Positions 50,335 to 56,300 of a stretch of 64,000 nt of DNA are shown here, piece by piece. Below the pieces are notes generated by a model, which worked only from the letters and a program-made list of their open reading frames with translations, was not told where the DNA came from and searched no databases. Positions within the stretch are counted from its first letter, which is position 1, and each line of letters starts with the position of its first letter. A program made the translations under genes and the position numbers. The stretch covers positions 111,724,001 to 111,788,000 of the forward strand of contig OZ024745.1 of NCBI GenBank assembly GCA_964016885.1, written 5' to 3'. Origin of the DNA: Eledone cirrhosa. Its lineage: Eukaryota.

Positions 50335-53300
50335 CTAAACACTAGTTAAGGAACAAAGTGCATTGATTTGTGGAAACATTTTAGAAATTCTAAATACAAA
50401 ACAAATTCAAAATATATTTAGTATAAATTCACTTTCTGTTTTCACTATAAAAGTATGAATTTTCCTCCCATATACTAACTAAAAGGTTTAAAAACCTAAA
50501 CATTTAACCCTTCAATGACTAGTCTTTGTGATGATGTAAATCCTGTTACTTCACAATCTCAGATGTACAGACTTGAATCAAACACTACATCTGAACAATT
50601 AACAAAAGGAAGCTTATATAAGAAAAGATCCAACACTCGATGCTTTGGCTTCCAATTAAAAATCTGAAACACTGGTAGTGAAAGCAATGAATTGATTCCA
50701 AAAAGAGAATAAAGTAATAAATATCTCTCTTCCACAAACCAACTAGGGTGTTCCATAAAATTAATAGAGTAATTGCAAGTGTACAAAAAAATAATATATG
50801 TATGTAGGTAGGTCTGCAAGTGTATATATATATATATACATAAATTTAGATATAACATATATATATATATATATATATATGGCATTAGCCATATTATAAA
50901 ATGCTTGCTTTAAATTTATAAATTCTAATTAATCATTTTCTATTTTTCTTCAAACACACTGATAACTTACAATTCTGCAAATTTACCCATTTGTGAATCT
51001 TGTTTTCTTGTGAACTGAAGCCTAATTAAAAAATCAGCTGAATTATTCACTATTAACTCCAGATATTTGAACTATTTTAATGGTAATACTAAACATACTT
51101 AATATAAATATATTATATTTTTATGTTCCCTCAAAATTCAGACAGACACACAGAGAGCTATCACTTGAACATTTACATTACTTTATATTTTCATAGTAAA
51201 TGCTTTATCTCACAATATTGAATCTTGTGATTTTGATATTTATTTTGAGAACAATACCTTAACATCAATATGCATGGCCAATTACAGCCAGTTTAAATGC
51301 TAATAAAAGTTAATACGACATCCTGAGGTAACTGAAGCTTGCCCAACCTTAAAGGAAACAGCAAGCTAATATTCTTAAAGGATACTGACTGCCCTTTGTG
51401 CATCTTCTGGGGTAGCAAATCTTACTACTCCCCAACCACGGCATTTACCACCATCTGTTTTAATCTCAGCATATTTTACATCACCTAATAGAAAAAAAAG
51501 ATAATTTGAAAAGAAAAAAAAAAAAAAACCAAAGAAATCAATAGAGTTGGAGTAAACTCACAAGTTGAAATGTTTTTTAATTTCCCTACATGTGGGTAAA
51601 GAAATATTTAGTACGTACCAACATCTCTAAATCTTTCTCGCAACATCTGCCAAGTGAATGAGTGAGGTAACTGAAAACAAATCAATTAAAAATATATAGC
51701 AACACACCCACACACACATGGATGCATACTAGGAAAATATATATCTAATGAAAACAATACTTACATTTCTCACAGCAATGTGACAGTCATCTCGTCCAGT
51801 ACTGCCACCACCGCCACCACCACCACCACCAGCACCTGTACCTCCACTGCTACTCATGTTCTTCATCATAGTTCGTCCATCCATTCCAGACAAGCCATGG
51901 ACACTCATGTCAGACATACTCATGCCTTGATTGCCCATGCTTCCCATCATACCCATACTACCTAATCCACCCATACCACTCATGTTGCTAGAAAAGGTAT
52001 CACCCATCCCTTGGTTTGAGCCAAAGTTCTTAGGTCCTAGATTACTTGCACCCATACCATAACCATCTCCCATACCTCCTCCACCTCCCATACCACCCAT
52101 ACTACCAGCACCACTCATACCACTAGACATGCCCATGGCACCCATACTACCTGTGGTCATGTTGCTACCCATACCAGCACCTCCCATACCACTACCCATG
52201 TTGCTACCCATGCCACCTCCCATACCACCAGCACCACTGCCCATATTACTGGCACCAGACATACCTGCCATACCAGACATGCCCATATTACCAGGTAGCA
52301 TACCTCCACTCATGTTGCCGGCCATTCCTGACATACCAGTATTCATACCAGTATTCATACCAGTGCCCATGCCACCCATGTTACCAGCCATACCACCACC
52401 CATGTTATCCATGCCACCTGTCATACCACCCGCCATACCACTATAGTTATTCATAGGTCCAGCTCCCATGTTACCCATACCACCACCCATACCACTACCC
52501 ATAGCTCCCATGTTACCATAATTACTACCAGTGCCACCTCCACTGCCACCACCAAATCCTCCCATTGGGCCACCTCCACCACCACCACCACCTGAAATAT
52601 AAGAGATATCTTAATTACATTAAATATTCAGGATAAATTCAGGGCTGCATGAATTAAACACATTGATCAAATCAAAACAGACGAGACTACACAGTAAAAT
52701 GATGTTTCTACACACCTGTCATTTGATTATTAAAGTTCTGCATAGGCTGTCCTCCAAGGCCAAGACCCATACCAATTGATTTCAAGCCACCTGAATAAGG
52801 TGAATTAAAGCAATTGTAGTAACTCGTTAAAAATAAAAGGAGTGTCAAAAGAAAAATATATGCAATGAACATTGGCAGATTTAACAAGGCATGGCTATAG
52901 TCCAATGACAAACCAGTAAAAGAAATGTACACACACAGCAAGATAGAAAATTCCACACCCCCAAATTCTATAAAGTCATTTTGTTAATTTTATAGATACA
53001 ATATGAAAATCTTTATGACAACCTACACTCACTAAGTCCCTAACGAAGCAATAGTTGGTTATACATGCCGTTTGAGTAGACCCCAAGAGTCAAGGTTATA
53101 ATTGACGTGAAAGACTTTACTGATTTCAATCATTATTGAACTACAACCGTATATGGTGCTGATTTTATCCAGTTATTTGCCATACCAATAAGGTGTAAAG
53201 AAACACACTTATCACAGCTCTGCTCCTTGTCTACATGCTAGTGTCGAAAAATGGACACAAAACAGCGATGATGATTCCCTTTACCAAAAGTTACTATGTA

Positions 53301-56300
53301 GGGACAGGACAGAAGTATATGTTTAAAGCTAATTTAATCAAACAGTCACGCAGCAGCCATAACTTTTCAAGGCTTTTGAGACAATGAGAGTGAAGTTATC
53401 AAAAAGCGTGTTAAGAGAATTCCAACAGGTATCAAAATGGAATATAAAATAAAATAAAATAAAAATACCACCTAGCTCCCAAACTAAAAAATTAAATACT
53501 CATAGAAATACAAATAAGGAGCAACATAATACCGGACAGAAAAATAACCTATTAGAATTTCATATGGAGTTAGCTGGCACCAAGTTATCAAATTTCATAT
53601 TGACTTTATTAGTGTTGAAAACACTGGTCAAGTAATGGTGGAAAATACTCTGCCAAAATTGCCCCTACCATGTATATTGGTGCATAGATTGTATTCATAT
53701 TATATAAAAACAAGTACCTCAAGTGAAATTATTAGGTTGGCTGCATCCTAATATCAATCACAATTTATATCTTTAAAAATACTTACTTGGAAGAGAAACT
53801 TTTGTGTGTGTGGTTTTGTCATTTGATGTGTCAACACTAGTTTTGTCCATCCGAACAACCATTGCTCTATCATATAGTGTTTGACTATTAAACATTGCTA
53901 AACTTGGGTTAAGGAACGTCAAACCATCAATATTTGTATTGCAAATATACCCATGTAACATTTATTTACAAACTATTCAGCATTGCAGGATATTTAGAAA
54001 ATGACAAACTTCAATATAAGTTTTTTTATGAAGCTTTCTACATACACACCAGTTAAACAGCCTCACAGTGCAACTAGACTGACTCGCAATTATCAATAAG
54101 AATTCATCTACATACACTTTACAAAATGACAACCACAACTCTCATAATTACATGCAAACAATATGTATACATGAATTTACAAACATGCACACAACTGCAA
54201 GTGAGAACATAAAAGGACTGGGTCCTGAAGATCATGCTGATGCTCCGTGATTGCCCATGCCACCCATGCCCATTGGACCAGGACCAGCTAAGCCAGCATC
54301 CATAGAATGCTGCTGTTGGTTTTTCATTTGCTGCATCATTTGTCAATCACACATGAAAAGCATTGTCCAAGAGAAATAAAACAAGACATGGGGAATTGAA
54401 AAAAAGATTAAAGGAAAAGGAAAAAAAAAACGTTTGATCAGTTTTTCCATCTTCTTTTAACCCTTTAGCATTTAAACCAGTCATATCCAGCCAGAATTCC
54501 CTCACCTCTTTCTGTTCAAACCGACCGTAATTCTCATTAAAAACTCATACCAACGTTAAGGTATTGTTTTCAAAATAAATAATATCAAAATCTCATAGAT
54601 TCGATATTATGAGAGGTCAAGCCTTCACTGCAAAAATACAATACTAAATGTAGAGTAATGTAAATGCTAGAGTTCGGATATGGATTTTATTGTTTATTGG
54701 ATCTTTGATAAATTGTCTGAATGCATTTATTTTTTAAATAAATAAAAAAAAAAGCAGTGCCAACATTATCCTTCAAGCTTTCCAAGGATAATTAAGATTT
54801 CAAATGAAAATAGCAACAAGGATGGAGAGGAAGAAACGGAACATTTGCCATTAGCTAAAATATTTTAAAAGGATACAAATTGCTTGAACAGCTTCCATCG
54901 GATGTTCAAAAGTAACAATTCCCATTCCTCGGCTTTTACCTTCTTTATCTTGCTTTATTTCAGCACGAAGTACATTTCCTGCCAGCTTAAAAACATCCTT
55001 TAATTTTTTCCATGTTACTTTATAGTCAAGCTGCAAAAATTAGTGATGGAAATATCTTTATACAAAAAGCCAACATTAAAACAATGATGAAACATGTTGA
55101 ATTTAATTGGTGATAATTTATATTTAGTGTGAAAATTACTTACATTAGCAACAAAAACTGTATTTGTGAGAGGACCTTCAATCCCTAAATTCTGGAGCAA
55201 TTGAGGACTGGGTCCTGAAGATCCTGATGATGCTCCGTGATTGCCCATGCCACCCATGCCCATTGGACCAGGACCAGCTAAGCCAGCACCCATAGAATGC
55301 TGCTGTTGGTTTTTCATTTGCTGCATCATTTGTCGATCACTTTCTTTTTCCTGCAACAGTAAAGTATCAAAGATTTTTTTTTTAAATCAGAAATGTTATT
55401 GGCCACCTAAATTATGATTTACCCTAATATAGAACCCTTTCAGGTGACACTCCTTAAGTTCTTGGCTAATACATCTTTCTGGCTTCTGACATATTTATCC
55501 TTGTATCAAGTTTTAAACATTATGATCTTGATATGTGCCCATACCACTACATTACGGTTTTTAATGGATTTTTGTCGTGCTACTCAAAGAATTTCACAGA
55601 CTACCTTCATGACAGTCTGATTATATGCAGTGAAAGTTCAGAGTTCCGGTAATGCCTACACTCCATATTAAATAGCATCAACAATCTAGTTGCTGTTAAA
55701 ATGCCTTAAAATTAGGTGTTATAAGTTGTATAGCCAAGGAAATTGGTATTCATTGGCAGTCATTTTATTTTACTACCAATTATATAAACCAGACACCCTT
55801 TCGACTAAATTATCTCAAAACCACAAAATCAAACTGAATGCTATAAAAAAATGAATATTCTAGTATAATATAGAAAAATTACTTACCTCTCGTACAACAA
55901 TTTGTCTGTCTTTAACTTTGTATCTGTGCATTTTTTCAATAGCTTTTCTTGCTGTTTCTTTGTCTTTAAATTCTAGAAGGCTGGAAAAAATGCAATTTTT
56001 TTTTTCAATTATATAATCTTGTAAGAGTTATATATTCATGAAATATCAGAAACTATTAAAATATAATAATTACCAGGCTCCTTTAGGCTTTCCATCAACA
56101 GTTTCCATCATGTCCACATATGGAGCTTCCCCAACTACAATTAAAAAGAATTTTTTTCATTTTAAATATTTGAATAGATTGAAAATAAAATGAACTGTAT
56201 ATTTATTAACTATTAGCTAAATATTTTATGCTGAAAGTAAAATAAAGAAATAAAATTAAAAACACCAACCTTCCTTTTTGAAAATATCTTTTATTTCCAT

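Follow-up and report, generated by a model that had tools for sequence, protein, structure and literature searches.

The closest described relatives of the locus analyzed here are the vertebrate HNRNPM and MYEF2 genes. In human and mouse, one minor intron is listed for each of these genes, with an exonic TAT/TTT before the donor (entries in PMC6717393). HNRPM was on a U12 gene list by 2007 (PMC1874599), and in Octopus bimaculoides, the orthologue of the minor intron of MYEF2 has likewise been classed as minor (PMC11347168, Table S8). At least two U12 introns are present in about 50 human genes, most of which belong to the ion-channel superfamily (PMC3584512). Moreover, two minor introns flank the exon block of circMORC3 (hsa_circ_0001189, exons 5-7), a circle that has been detected and is conserved between human and mouse, as they do in other U12 circles (among those presented in PMC4506483). 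Exons 5-7 of MORC3 span 5929/5930 nt (human/mouse), as compared to 5934/5935 nt between the listed minor introns, a match that holds to within 5 nt only. More generally, circularization can be driven by reverse-complementary intronic repeats, such as inverted Alu elements, and hnRNP M, a splicing regulator, itself controls circRNAs.

The gene considered here, located in a 64,000-nt stretch of Eledone cirrhosa DNA (the window), belongs to the same family as the vertebrate genes, presents the same three-RRM layout and contains a GT-AG minor intron at the RRM2 site, where the vertebrate minor intron appears to fit as well. However, while each human or mouse gene is listed with one minor intron, a further one is present in Eledone, at the RRM3 site homologous to that of RRM2. 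Like the human multi-U12 genes, the Eledone gene thus carries two U12 introns, yet here both members of the pair interrupt the tandem RRM2 and RRM3 at one and the same column. Our literature search found no paper on such a same-column U12 pair in hnRNP M, although intron databases may already list the RRM3 intron. As in circMORC3, an exon block is bounded by two minor introns and, therefore, a class-compatible back-splice is possible in both genes; unlike circMORC3, the Eledone back-splice was not among the transcript joints listed. Finally, as in circles of the inverted-Alu type, inverted copies of one repeat family are found in both flanking introns, but Eledone has only one short, diverged pair (87 nt aligned at 80%, 73 bits), whose distances to the acceptors are 559 and 825 nt, with pairing being predicted only.

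Gene structure and the twin U12 introns

The 657-aa gene model contains three RRMs and a Gly/Met-rich linker, with RRM2 being nearest to hnRNP M. Exon 6 (54877..55030; minus strand, as are all exons and introns described below) encodes the RRM2 core up to the U12 donor, is assigned to RRM_1 by Pfam, has one match in its own genome and finds human hnRNP M 2do0 as its best PDB match (E 2e-18). The top named homologues of the protein are MYEF2/hnRNP M, and P0012 presents three RRM_1 stretches (Pfam). Judged by these family features, the gene is a member of the hnRNP M/MYEF2 family. Intron 6 (53898..54876, 979 nt) interrupts RRM2 and is followed by exon 7 (53787..53897, 111 nt), with the U12 acceptor at its 5' end and encoding the end of RRM2, exon 8 (52716..52790, 75 nt), exon 9 (51765..52591, 827 nt), containing the Gly/Met-rich region and the start of RRM3, exon 10 (51619..51670, 52 nt), within RRM3, and exon 11 (51386..51484, 99 nt), which continues RRM3 up to the second U12 donor and is again recognized as RRM_1 by Pfam. 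Intron 11, the last (50335..51385, 1051 nt), interrupts RRM3, with the end of this domain and the stop codon being encoded by the coding part of exon 12 (50273..50334), where a candidate donor is located at 50293. Exons 7 to 12 were defined by the gene model and contig joints. As the earlier note had counted, exons 7-11, enclosed by the U12 introns, add up to 111+75+827+52+99 = 1164 nt.

Both introns are of the U12 GT-AG type and in phase 1. Their donors, GTATCCTTT at 54876 and 51385, conform to the U12 5' splice site RTATCCTT, while the branch sites, TCCTTAAC at 53915 and 50352, are each found 10 nt from the AG. The two introns fall in the same RRM column, so that the motifs, the column and the contig joints all bear out the earlier proposal of twin phase-1 U12 introns at an equivalent point of RRM2 and RRM3. 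A second intron position (phase 0, U2), missed in that proposal, is also common to RRM2 and RRM3. The gene structure, its canonical joints and these two common intron positions are established. A third U12-like motif pair in the window (43708 and 33707, minus strand) is associated with no exon, is antisense to another gene and was rejected as chance.

Both U12 introns look ancient. That in RRM2 corresponds to the minor intron known from vertebrate HNRNPM/MYEF2, while four homologous records appear to read through a U12 intron at the RRM3 site. In the gene model of a beetle (P0001), an in-frame intron of 75 nt has been left unspliced at this site, and its residues SIL (donor-like) and FLN (branch-like) keep the same spacing. 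In addition, three short ORFs among 280 proteins continue with [S/C]IL (chance per site, about 7e-4), with the exon of one being identical at 32/32 residues to a Pecten (scallop) protein. Read back from protein records rather than from DNA, the RRM3 intron would be at least as old as the mollusc-arthropod ancestor and would have been lost or converted in vertebrates. The locus is a tidy case of intron evolution, as it would appear that a U12 intron was copied along with its RRM, that molluscs and the beetle have kept both introns and that vertebrates were left with one.

The inverted MITE pair

The repeat in question is 216 bp long, with terminal inverted repeats of ~17 bp ending in TTAA, as is true of most of 30 copies; these ends would fit a TTAA target, as in piggyBac-like elements. 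Being short, non-coding, bounded by terminal inverted repeats and present in many copies (5548 candidates at first look), it is a MITE. Spaced stretches totalling 400 kb contained 6 copies, as compared to 10 within the 64-kb window and 19 in 264 kb. Only two are found in the gene, both in U12 introns, with none in the 7.4-kb first intron. Copy A (54457..54672, minus strand), in intron 6 and 202 nt from the donor, is nearly full length and 89% identical to the family majority. In intron 11, copy B (51159..51297, plus strand) has the orientation opposite to that of copy A and, through truncation, covers only nt 2-158 of the family, at 78% identity. The earlier note's claim of oppositely oriented MITEs in the two U12 introns thus holds, although the ends it gave for copy B (51170-51313) do not.

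That the copies could pair, as had also been claimed, is supported by modelling, with a predicted duplex of -128 kcal/mol versus -47 +/- 5 kcal/mol for 60 shuffles. In the prediction, the helix persists under local folding, with 140 inter-intron pairs. The longest perfect run is 14 bp (23 when G-U pairs are allowed), and copy A is predicted to fold on its own termini with -51.5 kcal/mol. We also considered control placements. The same family was met in the same geometry in 24 of 5008 local placements and in 0 of 4400 elsewhere, and inverted repeats of whatever family reaching 73 bits or more in 162/5008 and 40/4400, respectively (0.9-3.2%); it should be noted that the placements overlap. As a counterpoint to a chance insertion, an inverted pair is an uncommon coincidence in these controls.

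The MITE copies look young relative to the U12 introns which, as judged from the homologous records, long predate them. In organisms B, C and D, contigs matched the MITE over no more than its final ~40 nt, and in organism A over almost nothing; as these are RNA contigs, they cannot show that the MITE is absent from the introns of organisms A-D.

Transcripts and reading frame

Contigs were mapped from six runs (X24, X1, X12, X18, X6 and X11), representing five organisms and five studies, with X11 and X12 coming from one sample. None of the 24 runs listed, these six included, is labelled as RNA; the six were treated as such on the grounds that introns are skipped in their contigs. The joint produced by removal of intron 6 (53897/54877) was found in five of six runs and that of intron 11 (50334/51386) in all six. 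A 1847-nt contig from the same organism corresponds exactly to the modelled mRNA segment and spans both U12 joints. Neither the skip junction 54877-50334 nor the back-splice 51386-53897 was seen among the joints listed (15 of 54 in one contig mapping and 15 of 23 in the other), where the lowest joint depth was 61.4, as compared to 278.2 for the canonical joint (one mapping). This should be read with the nature of the data in mind, as assembled contigs show presence and not absence, rare forms are dropped and the library type is not on record. One contig from X18 (457 nt, depth 4.27) joins 30 nt of exon 11 to the first 15 nt of the U12 intron and fails the 31-letter bridging rule; it may reflect pre-mRNA, DNA or error and gives only a hint of intron 11 retention. 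At the protein level, a search for short chimeric forms gave 15 matches, none chimeric (8000 candidates scored), and a search with the RRM3 region gave four proteins only. Of 137 proteins in which the RRM2 helix motif was recognized, none ended within 35 residues of it, in searches that favour full-length forms. A literature search on circHNRNPM/circMYEF2, cephalopod minor introns, skipping between two minor introns and MITE-driven circles found no report on the locus.

As had been claimed, joining exon 6 to exon 12 is in frame, yielding 269 aa, and a circle of exons 7-11 is stop-free in one frame (0 stops, with 22 and 39 in the other two). Exons 6-9, bounded by the phase-0 U2 introns, are likewise an in-frame, stop-free cassette. 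Of the 55 blocks that can be formed from contiguous internal exons, 19 keep the frame, and 8 of these 19 would need a mixed U12/U2 join. That the skip would be in frame and the circle stop-free follows from duplication of the RRM; the frame symmetry of the cassette is a by-product of this duplication, and selection is not needed to explain it.

Origin of the cassette

We consider it likely that the twin U12 introns of this hnRNP M/MYEF2-family gene arose by ancient duplication of a domain together with its introns; in the assembled transcripts, both are removed in ordinary order. The common U12 site of RRM2 and RRM3 would be a legacy of that event, as duplication of an RRM carrying a phase-0 U2 and a phase-1 U12 intron would have placed both positions in each domain. 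Like other minor introns, the two would act as slow steps, with failure presumably resulting in retention. Retained intron 6 introduces a premature stop 9 codons in, likely followed by decay, while retained intron 11 introduces a stop after 3 codons, such that the end of RRM3 would be lost. The inverted MITE pair probably reflects recent insertion by chance, in surroundings rich in MITEs; its predicted pairing may give rise to small amounts of a circular by-product or to a target for A-to-I editing, with no role under selection. As the assembled transcripts are spliced in ordinary order, any cut-out or circular form is predicted as a by-product only.

A low-level U12-U12 circle is plausible, and it could be argued that the MITE pair joins the U12 sites to produce a lineage-restricted circle of exons 7-11 at low level, along with traces of the skip and without selected function. 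The flanking geometry is correct for this, the predicted duplex far exceeds its shuffles, about 60 human circles use an annotated U12 donor and acceptor, if with few reads (among the results in PMC4506483), and the exons 5-7 circle of MORC3 indicates that twin-U12 blocks can circularize. Nonetheless, copy B is truncated and diverged, perfect pairing is short, copy A can fold on itself, both repeats are distant from the acceptors and octopus circRNAs are low overall, consistent with ADAR repression (as described in part of PMC9699675), so that we regard this outcome as possible but rather doubtful. It does not conflict with the duplication origin, from which it departs solely in expecting a by-product that can be detected, and the locus offers an inexpensive natural setting in which to see whether U12 sites engage in back-splicing or skipping once frame and class permit. 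The twin sites might also have been retained because they guard exons 7 and 11, both symmetric, against U2 skipping, or because two slow steps control the dosage of a splicing regulator more tightly. Such a role would agree with the mixed joins needed by 8/19 in-frame blocks, with the finding that, in vertebrates, the minor introns of Myef2 and Hnrnpm respond when the minor spliceosome is lost (PMC11347168, Table S6) and with the non-random clustering of U12 introns in genes (a point made in PMC7367187); yet vertebrates retain just one such intron, mixed U12/U2 joins do happen (instances in PMC6800510) and neutral persistence has been argued for many minor introns (PMC10639083), making it improbable.

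The earlier note had gone further, suggesting a regulated minor-spliceosome domain switch, yielding a two-RRM protein without the Gly/Met region, or an RNA circle translated in rolling fashion. Frame and intron class would allow either product, the two U12 introns were apparently kept very long, and a translated circMORC3, which may differ in exon range, has been reported in fish (PMC10775979). However, the frame symmetry arises without selection, intron conservation reaches far beyond the MITE copies and canonical transcripts are what assemble in five organisms. Skip, circle and normal splicing, moreover, all depend on the same spliceosome and, therefore, its activity alone should not be able to choose between them; inhibition of the minor spliceosome is described as leading to retention or U2 bypass (within PMC8034651). 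What survives of the suggestion is that the geometry permits U12-U12 skipping and back-splicing, with the MORC3 minor-intron block as an example that circularizes; the designed switch is not supported, given the duplication by-product, the greater age of the introns and the canonical transcripts, and we hold it to be very improbable. Hardly to be expected, too, is that the young inverted MITE pair enabled tissue-regulated back-splicing to a 1164-nt, endlessly translated circle, or a two-RRM skip protein. Were a regulated skip or translated circle to exist, a recent transposon pair would have created an isoform switch of a rare, minor-spliceosome kind, and this in a splicing regulator.

Intron 6 also contains, as a direct repeat, 137 nt duplicated from inside exon 5 at 97% (54214..54350, minus strand), without flanking splice sites and missed by the earlier note. 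Two apparently backward joints, 55030-54214 and 55030-54250, are artefacts of this duplicate, exon 5 itself being cut off by the end of the stretch.

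The gene model and its two U12 introns

On the minus strand, a gene of 12 exons was modelled, the 3' half of which is considered here; its 657-aa product has three RRMs and a linker rich in Gly/Met. Exon 6 best matches human hnRNP M (PDB 2do0, E 2e-18), with MYEF2 and hnRNP M as top named relatives, and has 1 match in the organism's own genome. Full U12 signals were found in intron 6 (54876-53898; donor 54876, branch site 53915) and intron 11 (51385-50335; donor 51385, branch site 50352), with 10 nt between branch site and AG in both. Both introns are phase 1 and occupy an identical RRM column, in RRM2 and RRM3, respectively, as the earlier note had read them. 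Its arithmetic is likewise borne out by the gene model: exons 7-11 add up to 1164 nt, the skip joining exon 6 to exon 12 (54877-50334) is in frame, and the circle formed by back-splicing exon 11 to exon 7 (51386-53897) has 0 stops in one frame. As RRM2 and RRM3 have not only the U12 intron position in common but also a phase-0 U2 position (55144-55031 and 51765-51671), a second and equally clean in-frame cassette with a chimeric RRM is made up of exons 6-9 (1167 nt). Of the 55 contiguous internal exon blocks, 19 keep the frame and contain no stop, whether skipped or circularised. The modelled protein starts with an Arg/Ser-rich stretch (56270-56430 and 63859-63929, minus strand), also found in the bivalve homologue P0122.

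One minor intron is listed for each of human and mouse HNRNPM and MYEF2, with exonic TAT/TTT before it (PMC6717393); this context would fit RRM2, with its Ile-Ser junction, but not the Cys-Arg found in vertebrate RRM3. In Octopus bimaculoides, the orthologue of the MYEF2 minor intron has already been classed as minor (PMC11347168, Table S8, with the id confirmed by PMC6601371). At the exact RRM3 site, the beetle protein model P0001 contains a 75-nt read-through beginning SIL, which fits a U12 donor, with FLN at branch-site spacing. Among 280 proteins, 3 short ORFs continue with SIL or CIL at this site; in one of them the exon part agrees at 32/32 positions with a Pecten protein, and in another at 32/32 with the homologous record P0012. 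Back-read from protein rather than DNA, these continuations suggest that the RRM3 U12 intron dates back to the mollusc-arthropod split; the published literature searched did not yield a second U12 intron of invertebrate hnRNP M, which intron databases may list. Since the C-terminus of P0001 combines the read-through of this U12-like intron with two RRM2 motifs, this model has probably fused tandem genes by mistake. In a further homologous record, P0065, the junction at the RRM2 site is mis-joined.

Inverted MITE copies in introns 6 and 11

The MITE family, defined from 30 loci, is 216 bp long, ends in TTAA and has ~17-bp terminal inverted repeats. Copy A in intron 6 (54457-54672) is near full length (89%), while copy B in intron 11 (51159-51297) is truncated (78%) and inverted relative to copy A; the two have 87 nt in common at 80%, with a longest perfect run of 14 bp. 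Their predicted duplex reaches -128 kcal/mol, as compared with -47 +/- 5 for 60 shuffles, and 140 inter-intron pairs are left in predicted folding when flanks are included, making pairing plausible, though predicted only. The opposite orientation noted earlier thus stands, and the ability to pair holds in prediction. With 80-88% identity to the family majority sequence (6 copies), the MITE copies appear far younger than the U12 introns.

Transcripts and competing readings

Our transcript check covered assembled contigs only, from 6 of 24 runs (5 organisms, 5 studies). The canonical joint of intron 6 was present in 5/6 runs and that of intron 11 in 6/6, and an own-organism contig of 1847 nt, exactly as long as the model predicts between exon 2 and a point in exon 12, crosses both. 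Neither the skip nor the back-splice junction was among the 15 joints listed in each of two mappings, in contigs that drop rare forms and whose library types are unrecorded. The canonical form is what assembles, and a rare circle is compatible with these data. Among 137 proteins, none ended shortly after the RRM2 helix, which is a weak test.

We consider it probable that the arrangement is a relic of duplication whose introns are spliced constitutively, the young repeat pair being incidental. Both U12 introns would most likely be spliced constitutively, as slow minor-class steps, in line with the rate-limiting model for minor introns (PMC3584512); by computation, retention leads to a stop after 9 codons for intron 6 and after 3 for intron 11. 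Counting against incidental repeats, the inverted pair is an uncommon coincidence: a pair of this family with the same geometry occurred in 24/5008 local and 0/4400 spaced placements, and an inverted repeat of any kind of at least 73 bits in 162/5008 and 40/4400, rates that are only rough because placements overlap. As many windows were scanned, such a coincidence is still expected to turn up. A regulated switch or translated circle, as the earlier note proposed, is very improbable; that interpretation is partly supported, as no more than a possibility, while the observation behind it holds. An intron copied along with its domain always yields frame symmetry, which is therefore no evidence of design, and skip, circle and normal splicing all depend on the minor spliceosome. 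For this reason, and because inhibiting that spliceosome reportedly leads to retention and to skipping of the flanking exons by U2 splicing (PMC8034651), U6atac knockdown is no test of the switch as proposed.

A detectable by-product circle is doubtful but considerably less remote, being favored by the predicted A/B pairing. Overall levels of octopus circRNAs are low, which agrees with repression by ADAR (PMC9699675), and the MITE helix may therefore be an editing substrate instead of a circulariser. Two U12 introns are present in ~50 human genes, and exon skipping at U12 is rare (PMC3584512); annotated U12 sites are used by ~60 circles, which have low read counts (PMC4506483). MORC3, for which two minor introns are listed, gives a circle of exons 5-7 (PMC6954084) whose extent agrees within 5 nt with the distance between those introns in human and mouse. 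Like exons 7-11 here, it is bounded by two minor introns, and a U12-U12 circle in this gene would thus belong to an already known kind. The class exclusivity of U12 sites is not absolute, as mixed U12/U2 joins do occur (PMC6800510).

Additional observations in the window

Inside intron 6 (54214-54350) lies a direct duplicate of the exon 5 interior, 137 nt long and 97% identical, which lacks splice sites and gives false back-joints in mapping. In exon 12, contigs of two organisms (runs X24 and X6) break at one common 30-mer, at 50293-50294, and end directly before a U2-donor-like GAG|GTGAGA. This could be a common alternative donor in the last exon, for which the contigs revealed no partner acceptor; a branch located at the opposite end of the 30-mer is compatible as well.

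In the window, 10 MITE copies lie at 4948-54672, against 6 in 40 spaced stretches of 10 kb each (0.156 vs 0.015 per kb, ~10x density); the neighbourhood of 264 kb has 19. Several copies lie in and around a convergent downstream gene with a G-patch domain (Pfam; 33392-38862, plus strand), which is presumably SUGP1-like. Broken reading frames at 36865-38332 (minus strand) resemble, we assume, LINE-type reverse transcriptase.
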